DNA of 64,000 bases from Kangiella sp. (GTDB lineage Bacteria > Pseudomonadota > Gammaproteobacteria > Enterobacterales > Kangiellaceae), in contig JBLWYL010000001.1 of NCBI GenBank assembly GCA_048266925.1, forward strand, positions 537,235 through 601,234. The letters are read 5' to 3'. Below the pieces are notes generated by a model. The model did no database searches. It saw only the letters and a list, made by a program, of their open reading frames with translations, and was not told where the DNA came from. Numbering within the stretch: the stretch's first letter is position 1; each line of letters begins with the position of its first letter. Below are positions 1 to 11,634 of the stretch, piece by piece. Both the position numbers and the translations under genes were made by a program.

Positions 1-3000
1 CTATCAGTTATTTTATCCAAAAGAATAGAACTTTGTGCAGGCATAACAGCGTAATAAGTATTACTCCGCGGTATTAATGTATTACTAACAGGAATTGATT
101 TGATTAAACCATCAGCAGAGTCTTTTGAAGAACTCAACACAGTAACTACTACTTTATCAGTTTTAGGAGTAGTGATATCAAACTCAATCTTATTTTCTTC
201 ATGTGAAATCACTGAACTGAATACTTCAACATCTGTTTCCATGAATATTTTTTTATTGGCTTTGGCCTGAGCAGCTATACTGACCTCTGGTAAAGTTTCT
301 TCCGAACGAGAAATAACCGTTGCTCGCCCCATAAAACTATCTCCAACAGAAAGCTGCTTGGGAATACTAAGACGAGTTTCTAACATTTTTTGAGTTTTGA
401 CAGAAGCTGTTCTTGCCGAAATATCTCCGTCCAGACGAGTACCTATAACCAACACTTTCCAGCTGGCAAGGTTATCTGGTAGCTGGATATCCAAGACCTT
501 CTTAGCTCGGGATTCTACAATGACATCTGAGTTCCAATAAGCAGATTCTTTGAACAAAGTTCTGAGCTGTGAAGTGTCGACTTTAAGCCCGCCAACGTCA
601 ATCAAGGAACGTTGACCAGACAAAGATGCCTCAAAGCTTAAATCCTTCGATCGAGTCATTACTGTGACTGGAGCGGCCCCCAATCCAACATCTGATCGCT
701 TAAGCCTAGAGCCAGTAACGACAATCATTTCCGAATCAGAAAAAATATCTAACTCCATACTCTTAAGATCGCTATCTTGATAGAGGCTGCTCGAGTATAG
801 CTTCTTGGATAAGGTATAAGTATTTGGAGAATCCCATCTGATCTTATCGGGAGACATTTCTGACTGATAGATATCATAGTACTGCGCATCAACCATTTGA
901 TTTACAATACTTTCATCAACAACCGCAACGGTATACTTCATATGCCCGCCAGTTAGATTCTCAATAGCTAGCTCAACAACCTCGCCCGGTTTCTTAATAG
1001 AATCATCCAGCTCAACTTTGAAGCTGTCAGGCCTAACAGGAGATTCTACCGTTACTCGCTGAGTAATGGATGGAGCAAAATCAATAAGCTTTGAGTTTTT
1101 GGGCAAACTTCCTAACTCTTTCGGAAATAAGTTTATTGTAATATCAACTCCTGGAGCCATTTCCTCAATAACTTTTAAGTCATGAGAATTCAATCCGTTA
1201 CCCACTTCCATGACATGATATTCAATCATTTTATTTCGATGAACAATCAGTAGAGCAGTAGCTTCTTTAAATGGATTAGTAAACGAGATAGTAGCTGTAT
1301 CACCAACCTGATAAATATCGCTGTCGGAATGAATAGTCATATCTTGAAGACTATTATTGTCCGAGCTGTCTTTATAAAAATATTTTTGAGCGTAGGATGT
1401 TTGGTGGCTACCATCATCATAGTGTATGGTCGCTAAAATATCGTAATAACCTTCAAGGTCCGGAGTGAAAGTACAGGAGTTAAGATCTTTCTGTAAACAC
1501 TCGATATCTTCGTCGGGGCTTTCTTTATCATCAGCTGACCGACCCCAGAATGGTTTTGACTTTCTAATAGCATAATCAACGGGGATATCCTCAACTTCGT
1601 CCCCTTCAGGTGTAACAACCACCGACTCAATGGTGTAGGGCTTATTGGAAGGTATTGACCAGCCTATTGACTTTATACCTACAAAGTATGGCTTGCTGGA
1701 GTAAGGGATAGTTACTATTCGACTAACTGCATCATCCATTCCTCCACCACTCACTGACGATTGAACGGTTATTTTTCCGTAATTGAAGGTATTCTTGGGC
1801 ACAGATAACTTTTTACTAGCCAAACCATCACTATCAAGTCGCCCACCAAAGAAAAACTCTGTTACATCATCACAATAACCACAAGAATTTTCATAAAAAA
1901 CATAATCACCATACTGAATGTGGCTTTGACTGATTGAATAGGGTTCAACCTTTATCATTACCTCTGTTTGCCCCGCAGAGTAAGGGCCGCCCGAGAAATA
2001 CTCTGCTTTGGTGGAAACATCTAATTGCTCGCTTCCATACAAGCTTTCTTGCTCGATCTTCGTAGTAACCTTAATATCATTCGTTTTAAAATTGGCAACT
2101 TTGAAATAAGCCTGGCTATCAAAGTAACCTTTTCCCTCAAGTATAATTGAGTAATCACCGTCGTTGATTTTTTCCGGCAAATGAATCTGTCCAGAATATG
2201 TTCCAAACTCGTCAAACTTAGGGTCTTTCTTCTGATAAAACCCTTCACAATTTCTTATACTATAACAATCATAATCTGAGCCACTGACTGACAATACTGT
2301 TTCACCAGATAACTGAGGAATTATCAATTCATTGTCACGCAACTCTCTTAAGTAAACAGTATAATTGACGATTTCACCAGGCCTGTATATTGGCTTATCA
2401 GTAATTCCCCACAACCAATATTCACCTTCATTTATATAACTTGATTCGTAAGATAAAGAACCTGTTACAGCGGTATTTGCACTATGGTATTGCGTTAAAA
2501 ATGCTTTACTATCCCACTTGTCATCAAATGAAAATAATATTTTATCAAAGTTGAACTTATTCAGTTTGTTAATGGCTGAAACAGAATCAACTTTAGCAAT
2601 ACCACTATTATTCGTTTCTAAGTCGATTAAGTGATACTGCTGCTGGCTATTAATGGTACTGAGTGAAAACTGGGTATTAGCTAGAGGTTCTCCACTTGAT
2701 AAATCTGTAATAAAGAATAAAGCTTCATGTTTACTCTTTATAAAATGGATGTTGTATCGCGTTCTTTGTATAGAAAAATTAGAGAAATAAGTTTGATCGT
2801 CATCGTAATAAATAGATCCAGAGAGTTGCTTCGCATCTGAAAGTCCTGGCAAGTCCACCTTGGTCTTGACTAATTTATTTCTACCAGGAACAGTATCTAA
2901 GTGTTTCTTATGATTAACAGAAACGTAGTCTTGGTAATCAATAGCAACCTCCAAGCGATCAACGTTGAGAGTGTGTGCAAATAAGCTAATCTCATCATTT

Positions 3001-4037
3001 ATGCTCAACACTTCTTCTCTGTAAGGGTTTTCTGCGTTCGGATCAAAGTCATTTGCTCTAAGAACAATATCACTATTTTTTAACTTTCGACCAAAGATAT
3101 CTTTGACATCTTTAAAACACACTAATCTAATATCGGTATTTGGTTTGTAGATCAAGACTTCTATTGAGGAGTTAATATAATTGTTTGCAAGTTCTAATTC
3201 AGAGATAGAAGCCATACAGCTTTCTACCGACTCGCTATCCAAAGGGACGTTGAATTTTAGGGAAACGGCCGAATTAGCCTTACAAGCTTCATTCTCTTTA
3301 AGAGGGTCTTCCCAATGGTCACGACAAGTGCTACCAAGATATTTAAATGTCTTATAAGGCTCTATATTTTTTTTAAACGTAATACTTTCAGACTTTAAAT
3401 AACCGTGTGGTGTACTTATTCCTGATGTTTGGAAAATTTGATATTGATGATTCAGTTTTAATGGTTTATTCGGAGTTAAGAGCCAACCAGTATTTTTTTT
3501 ATAATCTTCAGTTTCTCTACTGAAATTATCTTTTTCAGCTGGTTTAACAGTCAATTCAATCAAGTCACCTTTATCACTTTTAAGGAAAATTGACTTTTTA
3601 AGAGATTCGGGAACAACAGAAATATTAAAATATGCCAAAATGACTGGAAGGTCGGGACTCTGCCATTTATGCACTGAAAAATGCTCTATTTCAGGGCGGC
3701 TAGTGGATACTTTTACACTAAAACCAGGAATTTTTGTTCCATCCGTATAATAAAGCCCATCCTTAACATTAATACTGTAGCTTGCAGCAGGAGGCAAAGT
3801 AGATGCATTATATAACTCACATTCTAAATTTTTTCGGTCACTCCACACCCAGTTACAGGAATGTTCGGGGGATATGTGAATGGGTAATTGACTCGGAGAA
3901 ACTCTTTGTACAGGCTTATCGAATGCTATTCGTATTTCTTGGCGCTCGATATAATCCTTAAATATTATTTCATTCTTAGCTAGAAGACTGTTTGACCCAA
4001 ACAATGTAAACATGACAAGCAATAACTTTATTTTCAT
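1..4037 (-). CDS. Bacterial alpha-2-macroglobulin family protein (5' part; runs off the window start)
   Basis: Manual translation from ATG at 4037 (MKIKLLLVMFTLFG..., signal-peptide-like) stays open to base 1. MG2-type motif WGITDKPIYRPGEIVNYTVYLR and A2M-domain motifs LRTLFKESAYW and LPDNLASWKVLVIG. Missing from the ORF track because there is no in-window stop. Confidence 0.85.
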   Translation of the reverse strand, partial: MKIKLLLVMFTLFGSNSLLAKNEIIFKDYIERQEIRIAFDKPVQRVSPSQLPIHISPEHSCNWVWSDRKNLECELYNASTLPPAASYSINVKDGLYYTDGTKIPGFSVKVSTSRPEIEHFSVHKWQSPDLPVILAYFNISVVPESLKKSIFLKSDKGDLIELTVKPAEKDNFSRETEDYKKNTGWLLTPNKPLKLNHQYQIFQTSGISTPHGYLKSESITFKKNIEPYKTFKYLGSTCRDHWEDPLKENEACKANSAVSLKFNVPLDSESVESCMASISELELANNYINSSIEVLIYKPNTDIRLVCFKDVKDIFGRKLKNSDIVLRANDFDPNAENPYREEVLSINDEISLFAHTLNVDRLEVAIDYQDYVSVNHKKHLDTVPGRNKLVKTKVDLPGLSDAKQLSGSIYYDDDQTYFSNFSIQRTRYNIHFIKSKHEALFFITDLSSGEPLANTQFSLSTINSQQQYHLIDLETNNSGIAKVDSVSAINKLNKFNFDKILFSFDDKWDSKAFLTQYHSANTAVTGSLSYESSYINEGEYWLWGITDKPIYRPGEIVNYTVYLRELRDNELIIPQLSGETVLSVSGSDYDCYSIRNCEGFYQKKDPKFDEFGTYSGQIHLPEKINDGDYSIILEGKGYFDSQAYFKVANFKTNDIKVTTKIEQESLYGSEQLDVSTKAEYFSGGPYSAGQTEVMIKVEPYSISQSHIQYGDYVFYENSCGYCDDVTEFFFGGRLDSDGLASKKLSVPKNTFNYGKITVQSSVSGGGMDDAVSRIVTIPYSSKPYFVGIKSIGWSIPSNKPYTIESVVVTPEGDEVEDIPVDYAIRKSKPFWGRSADDKESPDEDIECLQKDLNSCTFTPDLEGYYDILATIHYDDGSHQTSYAQKYFYKDSSDNNSLQDMTIHSDSDIYQVGDTATISFTNPFKEATALLIVHRNKMIEYHVMEVGNGLNSHDLKVIEEMAPGVDITINLFPKELGSLPKNSKLIDFAPSITQRVTVESPVRPDSFKVELDDSIKKPGEVVELAIENLTGGHMKYTVAVVDESIVNQMVDAQYYDIYQSEMSPDKIRWDSPNTYTLSKKLYSSSLYQDSDLKSMELDIFSDSEMIVVTGSRLKRSDVGLGAAPVTVMTRSKDLSFEASLSGQRSLIDVGGLKVDTSQLRTLFKESAYWNSDVIVESRAKKVLDIQLPDNLASWKVLVIGTRLDGDISARTASVKTQKMLETRLSIPKQLSVGDSFMGRATVISRSEETLPEVSIAAQAKANKKIFMETDVEVFSSVISHEENKIEFDITTPKTDKVVVTVLSSSKDSADGLIKSIPVSNTLIPRSNTYYAVMPAQSSILLDKITD

Positions 4038-4799: not shown

Positions 4800-4886
4800 T
4801 GGTGCCCAGGGCCGGAGTCGAACCGGCACGGTGTTGCCACCGAGGGATTTTAAGTCCCTTGCGTCTACCAATTTCGCCACCTGGGC
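4800..4886 (-). tRNA. leuZ: tRNA-Leu(TAA)
   Basis: Reverse complement GCCCAGGTGGCG...GACTTAAAATCCC...GGGCACCA, long variable arm, anticodon TAA. Confidence 0.97.
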
Positions 4887-4932
4887 AGATGACTTGCTTT
4901 ATCGCACCAACTTTACAGCTTTAGTCTAATTA

Positions 4933-5006
4933 TGGAGGCTGAGGCCGGAGTCGAACCGACGTCCACGGATTTGCAATCCGCTGTATAGCCACTCTACCAC
5001 TCAGCC
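4933..5006 (-). tRNA. cysT: tRNA-Cys(GCA)
   Basis: Cloverleaf GGCTGAGTGG...GGATTGCAAATCC...GCCTCCA, anticodon GCA. Confidence 0.97.
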
Positions 5007-5070
5007 ATAAATCAGTTTTGCTGGTGCTGATATAAAAAACCTCGGCCTAGAAGCACCGAGGTTTTGAATT

Positions 5071-5146
5071 TGGAGCGGGAAACGAGATTCGAACTCGCGA
5101 CCCCAACCTTGGCAAGGTTGTGCTCTACCAGCTGAGCTATTCCCGC
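5071..5146 (-). tRNA. glyW: tRNA-Gly(GCC)
   Basis: GCGGGAATAGCTCAG...CCTTGCCAAGG...CCCGCTCCA; conserved pgsA-Gly-Cys-Leu order. Confidence 0.97.
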
Positions 5147-5296
5147 GTCATTTGATGGCGTGCATTTTACTGTGAAATCTTAATGTGTCAACACAAAAAA
5201 CCGATTTTTTTAGCACGCATCCTGAGGCTGATTAAGGCTTGAACAATATGTTCTTTTTTTAAGCCGAAATCCTGGTGCCGCGTCAGGAGCTGGTTA

Positions 5297-5863
5297 TTAT
5301 GCGTCATTCTCTGAGCTTGTCAAGTACGGCCAGGCAGCTTTTAAATAGGTATACATAGACCATAAAGTAAGCAACGCTGATAACCAGATGAAGACGAATC
5401 CAAAGGTCTTAGGTAGGCCAAATACGCTCGGCGGCGCTAACAGGAATAAGAAAATCGCGAACATCTGGCTCAGGGTTTTAAGCTTTCCAATCACAGACAC
5501 ACCAACTACCGCTCGATTGCCCACTTCTGCCATCCATTCGCGTAATGCCGAAATGGTGATTTCGCGGCCAATGATAACCATAGCAGGAATCGCCAGCCAT
5601 AGGCTTCCTTCTCTTTCTACGAGCAGGATAAGGGTTATCGCGACCATCAGCTTATCGGCCACTGGATCTAAAAAGGCCCCGAATGGCGACTCAATATTCA
5701 TTTTCCGTGCTAAAAAGCCATCCAACCAATCGGTCGCCGCCGCAAAACAGAAAATGCCTAAGGTAATCCAGCGTGCCACAGGACTATCAATATAAAAGAA
5801 TAAGACGAACAGCGGGACCAATAAAATTCGAAAAGCTGTGAGTACGTTAGGTAAATTCCACAT
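5297..5863 (-). CDS. pgsA: CDP-diacylglycerol--glycerol-3-phosphate 3-phosphatidyltransferase
   Basis: NLPNVLT start and DWLDGFLAR...GAFLDPVADK CDP-alcohol phosphotransferase motif; synteny with uvrC. Confidence 0.97.
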   Translation of the reverse strand: MWNLPNVLTAFRILLVPLFVLFFYIDSPVARWITLGIFCFAAATDWLDGFLARKMNIESPFGAFLDPVADKLMVAITLILLVEREGSLWLAIPAMVIIGREITISALREWMAEVGNRAVVGVSVIGKLKTLSQMFAIFLFLLAPPSVFGLPKTFGFVFIWLSALLTLWSMYTYLKAAWPYLTSSENDA

Positions 5864-5934
5864 GATGACTTTCAGGTTCCAGATTGATTGTTATTGACGG
5901 CCTCATTGTAGCGGATTGTTTTTAAGAAATACCG

Positions 5935-7773
5935 CTAACTATGCAAATAATCATAAATTTTTTGTGCCAGCGACATGCTCACCCCCGGTGCTCCAGCAAT
6001 ATCTTTGACGCTGGCTTTTTCGACCTCTTGCCAGCCACCGAAATGCCTGAGCAACGCTTGTCGCCGCTTAGCTCCCACGCCGGGGATTTCTTCCAGCAAA
6101 GACTTAGTAGCTGACTTTTTACGTTGATGACGATGTTTGGTGATGGCAAAGCGATGTGCTTCGTCGCGAATGTGCTGAATAAAGTGCAATGCTTTCGAGT
6201 CATCATCCAGCAATAAGGGCTGATGCTGCCCCGGAAACCAAATCTGTTCCATGCCCACTTTGCGGTCGCTGCCCTTGGAAACACCGATCAGATAAACAGA
6301 CTGCAGCTCCAGCTCATTAAAGACTTCTTCTGCCTTTGCCAGCTGCCCTTTGCCGCCATCGACAATCACCAGGTCAGGCAAAGCCTGCTGTTCGTCTTTC
6401 AAACGCTTGTAGCGGCGTGTCAGGGCTTGCTGCATCGCAGCATAATCATCACCGCCGGTAATCCCCGAAATATTAAAGATGCGATAGTCAGCTTTCTTAG
6501 GGCCATTCTCATCGAACACCACGCAAGACGCCACCGTTTGCTTGCCCTGGGTATGGCTGATATCAAAGCACTCCACATGCTTCGGCATCTGCTCCATCTG
6601 CAATGCTTTTTGCAGGTCGAGCAAACGTTGCGTGAAATTGGATTTACTGTTGAGCTTGGCGCGCAAGGAATGTTCAGCATTCTTATTGGCAAAGGTTTGC
6701 CATTCTTTAACCTGGCCGCGGCTGGCCTGACGAATGGTTACCTTATTGCCGCGCTGTTCAGTAAAGGCTTCTTGAAGCGCTTCTATATCTTCCGGCAAAT
6801 TCTCAATCACCACCTGTTTAGGGATTTCTGCGCCAGATAAATAATAAAACCCAAGAAAGGTTGAAACGATTTCCTGTAAATCACTGTGCTTCGGTACTTT
6901 CGGGAAGTAGGTTTTATTGCCAACAATCGTGCCCTGGCGAATAAAGACCAACAAGATACAGCAGACACCGGAAGCGTAAGCCACACCGATTACATCCATA
7001 TCCGAAGCCGTGCCGCTTATTACTTGTTGCTGCATGACATGACGCATTTGCTTAATCTGGTCGCGGTAACGCGCGGCAATTTCAAACTCCAGGTTCTGGC
7101 TGGCCACATCCATCTTCTTCTGCAGACGCTTAATGACCTGTTCGCTTTTGCCCTGATAAAACAGTTTCACGTTCTCCACATCCTTGGCGTACTCTTCTTT
7201 CGAGATATAACCAACACACGGCGCGGTGCAACGCTTAATCTGATACTGCAAGCAAGGCCGAGAACGATTAGCAAAATAGCTGTCTTCACACTGACGGATC
7301 TGGAAGGTCTTTTGGATCAGCGACAAGCTCTGGCGCACAGCGCTGGAACTGGGAAAAGGCCCGAAATACTCGCCCTTTTCTTTCTTGGCTCCGCGATGAT
7401 AAGCCAGTCGCGGGAAATCACCCGCCGATAAAAAGACAAAAGGATAGGATTTATCATCCCGAAAAAGCACATTAAAGCGCGGCTTGTATTTCTTGATCAG
7501 ATTGTTTTCGAGCAGCAGCGCTTCGGTTTCTGTTTCGGTCACCGTTGTATGAATATCTTCAATATAGGTGACCATCAGTTCAGTTTTGGGCGACTGATGC
7601 TGCTTGGTAAAATAGCTTTTAACACGATTGGAAAGATTCTTGGCCTTGCCCACATACAGGGTTTCGCCGTCTTTACCCAGCATCTGATAGACGCCAGGCT
7701 TATGACTCAGGTGAGCAAGGATTTTTTTGATATGCGGTTTAATTGAAGATGAAGTCTCGTCCACAGGACTCAT
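5935..7773 (-). CDS. uvrC: Excinuclease ABC subunit C
   Basis: GIY-YIG N-terminus (PGVYQM...LYVGKAKNL), ECFDISH, DGGKGQ, C-terminal HhH. Confidence 0.98.
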   Translation of the reverse strand: MSPVDETSSSIKPHIKKILAHLSHKPGVYQMLGKDGETLYVGKAKNLSNRVKSYFTKQHQSPKTELMVTYIEDIHTTVTETETEALLLENNLIKKYKPRFNVLFRDDKSYPFVFLSAGDFPRLAYHRGAKKEKGEYFGPFPSSSAVRQSLSLIQKTFQIRQCEDSYFANRSRPCLQYQIKRCTAPCVGYISKEEYAKDVENVKLFYQGKSEQVIKRLQKKMDVASQNLEFEIAARYRDQIKQMRHVMQQQVISGTASDMDVIGVAYASGVCCILLVFIRQGTIVGNKTYFPKVPKHSDLQEIVSTFLGFYYLSGAEIPKQVVIENLPEDIEALQEAFTEQRGNKVTIRQASRGQVKEWQTFANKNAEHSLRAKLNSKSNFTQRLLDLQKALQMEQMPKHVECFDISHTQGKQTVASCVVFDENGPKKADYRIFNISGITGGDDYAAMQQALTRRYKRLKDEQQALPDLVIVDGGKGQLAKAEEVFNELELQSVYLIGVSKGSDRKVGMEQIWFPGQHQPLLLDDDSKALHFIQHIRDEAHRFAITKHRHQRKKSATKSLLEEIPGVGAKRRQALLRHFGGWQEVEKASVKDIAGAPGVSMSLAQKIYDYLHS

Positions 7774-7784
7774 GGCTCTATCTA

Positions 7785-8423
7785 CTACTGAGCTTCGATC
7801 ACTTTATAGCGAAGCGCCATGTGAGTCAGGCTCACATCATTTTCAACGCCGAGCTTTTCAAATAAACGATAACGGTAACTGTTCACCGTCTTGGGGCTTA
7901 AGTGTAGCTTGTCCGAAATGGCCTGCACCTTCTCGCCACGCGTGATCATCAACATGATCTGCATTTCACGCTCAGACAAATTACTGAAAGGGTTGTCTTC
8001 AGATTTGTTAAACTGGCTCAGCGCCATCTGTTGCGCCACTTCTGCCGCCAGGTAAAGCTTACCGCGATTAACTGAATGAATGGCCTTCACCATTTCATCA
8101 ATATCGGTTCCCTTAGTCAGGTAGCCCATAGCGCCAGCAGCAATAAACTGCGATGGATAAGGTTCAGAGCCATGCACCGTCAAAGCAATTACCTTCAAAT
8201 CCGGCTCAAAGCGCAGCATACGACGAGTCGCTTCCAAGCCGCCGATCCCCGGCATATTAGCATCCATCATCACCACATGAGGATTCAGCTCCTTCACTTT
8301 CTTAATTGCTTCTTCCCCAGATTCAGCCTCGCCAACCACATCAATTCCATCTGCATCCGAAAGTAAACGACCCAATCCCATGCGAACCAAATCGTGATCA
8401 TCTACCAGCAAGACTTTAATCAT
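7785..8423 (-). CDS. uvrY: Response regulator UvrY/GacA
   Basis: REC domain (LLVDDH) plus LuxR HTH (LSEREMQIM...LSPKTVNSYRYR), directly upstream of uvrC. Confidence 0.95.
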   Translation of the reverse strand: MIKVLLVDDHDLVRMGLGRLLSDADGIDVVGEAESGEEAIKKVKELNPHVVMMDANMPGIGGLEATRRMLRFEPDLKVIALTVHGSEPYPSQFIAAGAMGYLTKGTDIDEMVKAIHSVNRGKLYLAAEVAQQMALSQFNKSEDNPFSNLSEREMQIMLMITRGEKVQAISDKLHLSPKTVNSYRYRLFEKLGVENDVSLTHMALRYKVIEAQ

Positions 8424-9540: not shown

Positions 9541-11634
9541 TTAAAACCTAAACTCAAACCCCACATAAACATTTCGGCCATTGGCTGGCAAACGCTCGCC
9601 AACCGCAATATCGCTTCCAGCAGCACGATTAATGCCACCCAAGTGCTCCACATACTGCTTATCGAATAGGTTCTCAATCCCCGCCCGCACGGTCAGGGCA
9701 TTATCAAACATATAATCCGCCATCCAGTCCCAAACCACATACCCGGCGGTTTCGTTTTCATTATTGATACTCGACACCCGATCCTGATCCGCATAAATCT
9801 GCGCAGCGAATTGGGTACTGAACTGAACGCCCTGATAGCCCCACACAAATCGCGTATTGAGCGGTGCAATACGATACAAATTGATATCGCTGTCATCGCG
9901 CTCACCACGCACATAACTCACCACCCCGGACATAAAGAAATCCGATGGCATGTCATAGCGCCAGTTACCATCAAAGCCCCATAAGGTTGCATCAACATTG
10001 GTGAACTGCAATGGGGCTGGGTCACCCATCATGCCAGCCACCATGATCGCTCTGGGGTCGGTACTTGGCGTTCCTTCAATATAATCCTTAACCTGCGAAT
10101 AAAAGACCCGTGGCGACACCTTAAAACCACCATTGCTGTAATCAAAACCCGTATCAATCTGGTAAGCCGTTTCTGGCTCAAGATTGATATCGCCAAAGTA
10201 AGTCTTACCATCTGCCAGGCCGCCGGTTGACTGCATCGGAATCCACAGATAACGCTGTTGATAACTGGCCGCATGTTGCTTAATGCCTGCGCTGTAGTTC
10301 CAGATAAAACTCTCGCTCAGTACCGACTTACCATGATAAGTCACATCATAAGTCGTATCACTAACGCTGCGATCCTCCTGATTAAAGTCATTCTGCAAAC
10401 CCGCAATCGCAGAACTCATCATTGCCATCGAATGCGCCACTTCGCCAGCATCGGCGTGGTTATACTTAACCCGAACGCCAAGGGTATCGCTACGCGCTTC
10501 TGAGCGCTGCCCCCACTGCACATAAGCGCTGTGACGGTCATCCTCAACCTGATTAAAATTAACCACACTGAACATCATATTATTGGGATTACTAATATCC
10601 ACATCATGCTCAGACAAATACCCCTGCAATCCATACACCCAGTCACCAGCTGTCAGTTGCAAATTATAATCTGAGCTCTTGGCTGCCGCATAGGTATAAC
10701 GCTGCGCGCTAAGATTAAGGTTCTCGCGCTGACTAAAATTATCCATGCCATGGGTATAGTCCGAAGCCCCGAACTGCCACTCCAGCACAGCGCTGCCTAA
10801 CTGATGCTCGCCATCCAGACTCCACTGCTCGCCATGCACATAATTGATATCCATCGGCAACGCAGGCGTTCCCGAGAAGCCGGTGTCAGTCTTGCCATAA
10901 CGCACACCAATGCGGCTGTTACCGAACTCATAAGCCATATCCAGGCCCAATTGCTGCTTATCGTAAGCAGTCGTAATGATGTCACGGCCCAGCGCATCCT
11001 CTGCATTATTGGCACTCTGGTCGCTGATAAAGGCATACACACCGAAATCATTAGCGCTGACATTGATATCCCCAGCATAAGTCGTGCCGTCGTTAATCCC
11101 CGAATACCAGCTGCTCAAAGAACCCTCGACCGACAGCTCCTCAGAAGTGCGCGCGCGTTTCAGATGCACATCCACCGCACCGCCCAGCGTATCGATACCC
11201 GCTGTCACTGGCGCAATCCCTCGATACACAGTCATCGCCTCAACGCTTAATGGCACGGCATAAGTCAAAGGCGCGTCCATCGCATTCGGCCCAGCACCAA
11301 TCGCCGTACGACCATTCAAGCTAACGCCGACACGATCACCAAACATCCCGCGATACTGCGCAATCCCCGTTACTGGGCCATTCTTATTCACATTCGCCCC
11401 TGGCACCGTCTTCAACCACTGCGCCACATCCGACTCAACTGGATCCGCATCCGCCACCGACAAATCATCAGACGAAGCTCTCTTTAAGGAACTCGACGCA
11501 CTAATCGTAATCACATCAATATGCTCATCCTCAGATTCAATATCCTCAGCCAACACAACCCCAGAAAAGAAACAACCAGACACAGCCAACGCAACCGCGC
11601 TCACACGAAAAGAATCAATAGAAAAGAAATTCAT
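9541..11634 (-). CDS. TonB-dependent receptor, Met/His-rich (possible copper uptake)
   Basis: Signal peptide, DVITISA TonB-box region, plug motif GVAQYRGMFGDRV-like (GIAQYRGMFGDRV), C-terminal NVYVGFEFRF; Met clusters HSMAMMSS, MVAGMM, NNMMF. Confidence 0.88.
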   Translation of the reverse strand: MNFFSIDSFRVSAVALAVSGCFFSGVVLAEDIESEDEHIDVITISASSSLKRASSDDLSVADADPVESDVAQWLKTVPGANVNKNGPVTGIAQYRGMFGDRVGVSLNGRTAIGAGPNAMDAPLTYAVPLSVEAMTVYRGIAPVTAGIDTLGGAVDVHLKRARTSEELSVEGSLSSWYSGINDGTTYAGDINVSANDFGVYAFISDQSANNAEDALGRDIITTAYDKQQLGLDMAYEFGNSRIGVRYGKTDTGFSGTPALPMDINYVHGEQWSLDGEHQLGSAVLEWQFGASDYTHGMDNFSQRENLNLSAQRYTYAAAKSSDYNLQLTAGDWVYGLQGYLSEHDVDISNPNNMMFSVVNFNQVEDDRHSAYVQWGQRSEARSDTLGVRVKYNHADAGEVAHSMAMMSSAIAGLQNDFNQEDRSVSDTTYDVTYHGKSVLSESFIWNYSAGIKQHAASYQQRYLWIPMQSTGGLADGKTYFGDINLEPETAYQIDTGFDYSNGGFKVSPRVFYSQVKDYIEGTPSTDPRAIMVAGMMGDPAPLQFTNVDATLWGFDGNWRYDMPSDFFMSGVVSYVRGERDDSDINLYRIAPLNTRFVWGYQGVQFSTQFAAQIYADQDRVSSINNENETAGYVVWDWMADYMFDNALTVRAGIENLFDKQYVEHLGGINRAAGSDIAVGERLPANGRNVYVGFEFRF

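Follow-up and report, generated by a model that had tools for sequence, protein, structure and literature searches.

The bait region of an alpha-2-macroglobulin (A2M) encoded at the left edge of a 64,000-nucleotide stretch of Kangiella sp. DNA (the window) carries a mimic of the N-terminus of a TonB-dependent receptor, and this mimic is a real and selected feature of the protein. A first-pass annotation had reported a TonB-receptor motif here, and the minus strand at 651-731 reads exactly as quoted there, with all 27 residues (aa 1103-1129 of the A2M) in place. The features to which we refer are as follows.

1..4037, continuing to window coordinate -1485, minus strand: A2M gene (1840 aa, start ATG at 4037)
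3978..4037, minus strand: probable Sec signal peptide of the A2M, no lipobox cysteine (by eye)
903..1337, minus strand: Pfam A2M_BRD (aa 901-1045, E 4.2e-12)
579..896, minus strand: disordered bait loop (about aa 1048-1153, pLDDT <50)
651..731, minus strand: mimic of a receptor N-terminus (aa 1103-1129), sharing 20 of 26 residues with receptor G000:C1:1156417-1159086
711..731, minus strand: counterpart of the TonB box (aa 1103-1109), aligned in register with BtuB residues 6-12
690..710, minus strand: basic stretch after the box (aa 1110-1116)
651..671, minus strand: equivalent of the first plug strand (aa 1123-1129), by the register of PDB 1nqe
291..542, minus strand: Pfam A2M (MG7) match (aa 1166-1249)
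4800..5146, minus strand: tRNA-Gly, -Cys and -Leu cluster that follows pgsA and immediately precedes the A2M gene

The A2M open reading frame occupies a minus-strand frame (4073-3) whose 3' end is open in the window, extending 1,485 bases beyond its left edge. Pfam MG2, A2M_BRD, A2M and bMG10 all matched above cut-off, and the thioester motif CWEQ, coded like bMG10 outside the window, is intact at aa 1379-1382 and invariant across 22 aligned mimic carriers. Excerpts of PMC4498604 give EXMY and RDDR as the C-terminal motifs of bacterial A2Ms; in our protein the EXMY residues E1821, M1823 and Y1824 are invariant and a literal RDDR is absent from the sequence. A profile of the A2M clade retrieved ECAM and SaA2M as its best PDB matches (E 1.5e-45), a PDB search with the single sequence P0001 gave 0 matches, and a scan against NCBIfam returned no family. 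An AlphaFold2 model of aa 770-1270, computed from an alignment of 17 sequences (mean pLDDT 64.5, pTM 0.39), showed folded beta domains on either side of a stretch of about aa 1048-1153 that fell below pLDDT 50, and Foldseek with this model led to A2M and complement structures. Scans of the A2M for PF00593 and PF07715 matched neither, hence no barrel and no complete plug; one of 22 A2M homologues scanned (P0025) has a sub-threshold Plug match (E 0.008). The window protein is thus a bacterial thioester A2M, and neither a YfhM-type lipoprotein nor a TonB-dependent receptor.

The gene adjoins what appears to be a standard uvrY-uvrC-pgsA-tRNA(Gly, Cys, Leu) block (window 4800-8423, names judged from sequence). 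Its GC content is 37.5%, compared with 43.9% for the genome, and this low value together with the position after the tRNA cluster fits an acquired gene, the cluster being its likely insertion site. The neighbours are tRNAs and unrelated ORFs, with no pbpC, and no conserved operon was seen around the A2M among the carrier loci listed, whose ORFs are given without a family scan. Across 24 genomes of the genus, the window type of A2M occurs in 2 and a canonical type of 1650 aa in 11. In the present genome the canonical protein is a lipoprotein of 1652 aa without the motif (L122:812-7410; G000:C2:30311-36909, minus strand). About 240 bases upstream of it is the gene of a 467-aa protein that combines a TonB C-terminal domain with Sel1-like repeats, and similar coordinates suggest the same pair in G001, G004, G014 and G016; this would be a second, separate link between A2M and TonB.

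That the bait holds a receptor-like segment, as the annotation maintained, is borne out in several ways. The segment sits between A2M_BRD and MG7, inside the disordered stretch, and a profile built from 11 receptor N-termini and no A2M (profile A2, in which the resident receptor is one of the 11) gives it 53.9 bits (E 4.9e-14), higher than two real receptors of the genome (49.7 and 45.9 bits); searched against the PDB, the same short profile gave chance matches only. Among the 5,735 stop-to-stop frames of the genome the best other match to the segment was an 890-aa TonB-dependent receptor with Pfam barrel and plug (C1:1156417-1159086, phmmer E 1.1e-6), whose matching stretch aligns to residues 5-31 of BtuB, Ton box included (PDB 1nqe). 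In BtuB, according to excerpts of PMC5413942, residues 5-14 constitute the Ton-box peptide and residues 23-73 a weak subdomain that is unfolded by TonB. The box of the window bait is in register with the Ton box and has a beta-strand pattern, and proline is absent from all 42 mimic boxes compared. The most conserved part of the bait across the clade is the basic stretch together with T1108-G1109; the equivalent of the first plug strand is absent from the bait of the nearest orthologue (G017). A search of window 600-800 with the Pfam Plug model, proposed as a check by the annotation, produced no match at E up to 10, because PF07715 begins after the box and only one strand is imitated here.

The motif also proved to be conserved among homologues, being kept in all seven close orthologue sequences (P0002-P0004 and L006-L009, two of which are the same protein). 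In a set of 247 A2M sequences, reduced to 208 after removal of fragments and duplicates, the box pattern was found at 44 places within the 100 residues ahead of MG7 (20,800 aa) and at 12 in the remaining 367,928 aa, although the pattern was written after the baits had been seen, 2 of the 44 matches are false positives, and one search feeding the set used a motif-containing query, which favours carriers. In one homologue search, carriers made up 14 of the 79 loci with a located MG7. A FastTree tree of the C-terminal part, built with the bait excluded, contains a clade of 37 members (support 0.955), 36 of which carry the motif. A trio with receptor types 'GIRAS' or 'ARKR' is placed as sister of this clade with weak support (0.41), and boxes are also found in P0063/P0083 and P0005, within a large group of mostly short glycine-rich baits, a distribution that would suggest several gains of the mimic in A2Ms. 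Named carriers include records from Pleionea, Aliikangiella, Arenimonas, Dokdonella, Algicola and Agarilytica, and the baits of L040 and L041 repeat those of the same-family genomes G028 and G033, which places the host of the window in this family. Among 22 hand-picked carriers, the eight core columns have an average conservation of 0.73 (top 1.4% of windows) as opposed to 0.20 in both flanks. A chance resemblance of a low-complexity loop, for which one could cite the shortness of the motif and the failure of the Pfam Plug model, is refuted by the receptor-only profile, by the enrichment before MG7 and by the tree clade, and we attach practically no weight to it.

The extent of the imitation varies. 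Many mimics are only about 14 residues long, while others reach 59-60 residues at 82-83% identity, and the long ones end before the receptor's LRG strand, within the span that matches the weak subdomain of BtuB. Some baits contain tandem or box-less plug pieces (P0025, P0029, P0045, L063, L117 and L203). The two clade paralogues in G085, L190 and L203, each have a two-part mimic of the same receptor. Of two distant A2Ms, P0008 has a bait with a CarboxypepD_reg domain followed by a box-like strand, and P0073 a bait stretch that by eye resembles the plug core.

The mimics follow the receptors of their hosts. When 17 baits were scored against 77 receptor N-termini from the same 17 genomes, the receptor of the bait's own genome came first in 7 cases, first or second in 10, and fifth or worse in 7; under shuffling the mean number of firsts was 1.0, and 7 was not attained in any of 10,000 shuffles, a figure that is overstated since kin are not independent. 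The receptor sets comprised matches to a TGSR-type profile only and several genomes are fragmented MAGs, such that the true partner may be missing. The sister A2Ms L063 and L117 each prefer their own receptor (243 versus 200 and 219 versus 189, respectively), and L098 copies a two-residue insertion of its host receptor. At sites where the own receptor and that of a close relative differ, 19 mimic segments, drawn from 10 genomes with a clear dominant receptor, sided with their own 311 times and with the other 111 times, and the parts tracked include the residues just before the box and the variable loop between the box and the first strand. The window's own bait tracks the receptor at genus level only, siding with the receptor of G017 by 5 to 2 at differing sites, and tracking failed or was weak for L054, L046, L055, L118, L007, L008 and L009.

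By a self-consistent codon adaptation index the imitated receptor gene is 3rd of 2050, with the next receptor at rank 60 and the A2M gene at rank 1039; judged by codon bias alone, the imitated receptor is probably the most abundant outer-membrane transporter of the cell. In the 10 genomes with a clear dominant receptor, the A2M has its best match in the receptor whose codons are the most optimised among those retrieved (2-10 each; 13 for G000). In G028, G033, G089 and G090 the best-matched receptor is not the most optimised one, and in G081, G082 and G086 the match is too weak to be considered. Another TonB-dependent receptor is encoded within the window itself (9541-11634, minus strand); its N-terminus is unlike the bait and its codon adaptation rank is 1614 of 2050.

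The annotation had also proposed that the segment is a captured receptor fragment serving as a decoy, and the codons bear on the first half of this proposal. In 38 pairs of a mimic with its own receptor, 284 of 744 codons at identical degenerate residues were shared, compared with 292.9 expected if the two were independent, and 27 of 59 serines switched between TCN and AGY (25.5 expected). In control pairs of receptors from different genomes (65-85% identity), 715 of 1319 codons were shared (604 expected) and 10 of 117 serines switched; in nine A2M core pairs, 15 of 135 serines switched where 67 were expected. In a selection of eleven strong pairs, each reduced to its best-matching segment (300 of 371 residues the same, mean protein identity 81%), 126 of 299 codons agreed (117.5 expected, z 1.1) and 9 of 23 serines switched (Fisher p 6e-4 against 10 of 117, the pairs not being independent). 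For the window bait and receptor the count was 6 of 19 identical codons, with 6.1 expected. Recent DNA duplication or gene conversion from the receptor gene is accordingly rejected as a general source; L187 (with L182) is a partial exception, with 31 of 49 codons identical (24.1 expected) and a 20-nt exact DNA run. Inspection of the alignments by eye revealed no DGR-like A-specific pattern, the differences being ordinary third-position changes. As codons at identical residues are as different as independent draws, any capture would be old, which is possible, and the match would be kept by selection on the protein. To judge from the codons, then, the mimicry is held and updated at the protein level rather than being a fresh gene fragment; of the earlier proposal the captured fragment is not borne out by the DNA, and the decoy function survives as the leading reading.

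A related view is that the segment is a relic, an old piece of a receptor gene in a tolerant loop that persists as a generic arginine-rich bait without host-matching selection. Bait loops do tolerate insertions, receptor genes are numerous, kinship alone yields some apparent tracking, and the L187/L182 pair fits. Against it stand the conservation of the motif relative to its flanks (in hand-picked carriers), the preference of the sisters L063 and L117 for their own receptors, the high protein identity of the strong pairs without a significant codon excess, and the convergence of unrelated families in one genome on the same receptor, and we regard a relic as quite unlikely.

The last of these points stems from proteins other than A2Ms. 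The annotation presented the motif as a feature of the A2M; it is present in the A2M bait but not special to it, as exported proteins of other families have it too and track the same resident receptor. One operon of this genome (L003:5212-8560; G000:C3:135211-138559, minus strand) has an ECF sigma factor gene flanked by those of a YfbK vWA lipoprotein and of a protein labelled anti-sigma-like from its position and shape, without a family match; both flanking proteins carry a receptor mimic. This arrangement of three genes seems to be repeated in G017 and G085. Carriers in other genomes comprise more YfbK and anti-sigma-like proteins, a DUF2135-TPR protein and an unnamed 1400-aa protein, and G085 has six mimic segments in four proteins, all of which best match receptor L174. 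Two proteins of about 1400 aa, L169:1-3078 and L221:1-3045 (minus strand), have no Pfam match in the part covered, and in each a host-matched mimic occupies the corresponding position, ahead of a motif that the two have in common. A 236-aa exported protein of this genome (G000:C1:462388-463095; L002:5389-6096, minus strand) has the box right after its signal peptide; it has no Pfam match and a weak Atlas lead to SIMPL (0.85, the family being on 10% of members), and one Atlas cluster of look-alikes is auto-named 'TonB-dependent receptor'. A 134-aa protein without a Pfam match (L188:1249-1650) shows a plug-like segment and a degenerate box.

How could such a mimic act? Our tentative preference, short of even confidence, is for a decoy bait aimed at proteases that attack the TonB-pulled segment of the receptor. 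The bait imitates the part of the dominant receptor that TonB pulls into the periplasm, i.e. the TonB box and the force-labile plug segment, and a protease recognising this segment would otherwise disable or unplug the main transporter. With the A2M acting as an exported protease trap upon bait cleavage, as its likeness to known A2Ms would have it, the putative attacker would cut the bait instead, the thioester would be triggered and the protease caught; the YfbK-type vWA lipoproteins may be further traps and the anti-sigma-like protein a sensor of cleavage. ECAM is activated by bait cleavage, according to excerpts of PMC4498604, human A2M likewise requires its bait to be broken (PMC9352918), and the decoy is suggested by the location of the mimic in a disordered bait and by the retention of CxEQ in 41 of 42 carriers. 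It is further favoured by the fact that host-specific side chains and indels are tracked more closely than TonB reportedly requires (excerpts of PMC11658791 state that TonB-box activity depends less on side chains than on secondary structure), by the tandem and box-less plug pieces, and by the choice of the most codon-optimised receptor as model. On the other hand, no protease specific for the TonB box or plug was found here or in the literature searched, and a protease does not obviously need 60 matched residues. Moreover, the one element common to nearly all mimics is the TonB box, proline-free as TonB binding would require, a cut in the 236-aa protein would remove little, and tracking is incomplete, both in the 7 of 17 genomes ranked fifth or worse and in the window bait.

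These objections lead to the possible, if somewhat doubtful, alternative that the mimic serves as a tag by which its carrier docks to the Ton machinery of the host, meaning the TonB C-terminal domain and perhaps TPR or TtpC proteins of the tonB operon. The machinery would co-evolve with its dominant client, while the other clients, here the A2M, vWA and anti-sigma proteins, would converge on that client's sequence and be tethered, moved or mechanically primed by TonB. Consistent with this, what the mimics share is above all the box, present in 36 of 37 clade members and free of proline throughout, the residues just before it are tracked too, and in the 236-aa carrier it lies at the mature N-terminus, as it does in receptors. 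The genome encodes 8 TonB_C proteins as well as a ttpC-exbB-exbD-tonB-TPR-like operon, its genes being named from sequence. Excerpts of PMC5413942 report that a 10-residue Ton-box peptide binds TonB with a KD of 9.4 uM, and for the Fec system excerpts of PMC12036975 describe a proposal in which cleavage of the anti-sigma factor is set off by force from TonB. Yet TonB contacts about 5-10 residues, whereas tracking reaches 60, helix included; other receptors of the same genome have quite different boxes, and still the mimics follow one receptor; and the box is missing from some mimic segments (P0025 and the first segment of L203). In addition, activation of human A2M needs a break in the bait, and stretching the uncut bait triggers no conformational change (PMC9352918), which weakens the energy-coupled A2M with a TonB site that the annotation had offered as its second possibility, although we keep Ton docking as a rival. 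Alternatively, the mimic could dock into the receptor itself, filling the site vacated by an N-terminal segment that TonB has pulled or a protease has removed, and so hold traps and sensors under open channels. Such docking would explain the match to one receptor, the kept arginine (R14 of BtuB), the imitation of plug strand and helix, and the C-terminal limit of the long mimics, but tracking also extends to the residues before the box and to the variable loop that joins it to the strand, parts that presumably need not pack in the barrel, and many mimics have only about 14 residues; we consider it unlikely. The protease decoy and docking to the Ton machinery are compatible with each other, as TonB may bind whichever box is exposed.

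Relatives of the A2M and several exported proteins of other families resemble the receptor of their own host, and this points to an unrecognised decoy or docking system. It may be, though we advance this with some reserve, that many gammaproteobacteria practise a self-mimicry surveillance, in which unrelated exported proteins imitate the N-terminus of the dominant receptor and are kept up to date by selection, one recognition event, by a protease or by the Ton machinery, leading to both trapping and a sigma response. Searches of openly available full texts gave no account of a receptor mimic, whether in the bait of an A2M or in the other carrier families, and we know of no natural target protease of a bacterial A2M. 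A bait that imitates one identified host protein would name the substrate protected, and the thioester would then serve as an internal reagent with which to capture and identify the attacker; should the Ton reading be true instead, TonB would have non-receptor clients among the cell's own proteins. In either case, an imitation of 15-60 residues that follows the host receptor without shared codons would be an unusual instance of intragenomic protein mimicry, and mimics may explain small proteins auto-named 'TonB-dependent receptor'.

Plant immunity offers a parallel in its integrated decoys and guarded protease substrates, such as PBS1/RPS5, to which the proposed decoy may be likened: the logic of an imitated protease target wired to a response would be shared, by analogy only and with no homology. 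The vWA/sigma/anti-sigma-like operon has the same parts as ECF289-type operons, in which a sigma factor occurs with a DUF3520-vWA (YfbK) protein; the likeness is by parts alone, and a TonB-box mimic is not mentioned for these operons in the excerpts of PMC7826278 that describe them. With the type I A2Ms ECAM (YfhM) of E. coli and SaA2M of Salmonella (PDB 4rtd, 5a42, 4u48), the window A2M shares the architecture of MG domains, BRD, thioester and C-terminal MG domains as well as CxEQ, the EXMY motif and a disordered bait, but it has neither lipobox nor pbpC neighbour, is about 200 aa longer and bears a receptor mimic in the bait. Akin to BtuB (PDB 1nqe, 2gsk) and other TonB-dependent transporters, its segment is in register with the Ton box and the first plug strand, whereas the protein lacks a barrel and plug core and its box is internal, in a loop tethered at both ends. 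Group B colicins are known non-receptor users of the TonB box (excerpts of PMC11658791), and unlike these and other TonB-box-bearing colicins or pyocins, the carrier described here is the cell's own exported protein, imitating one resident receptor well beyond the box.
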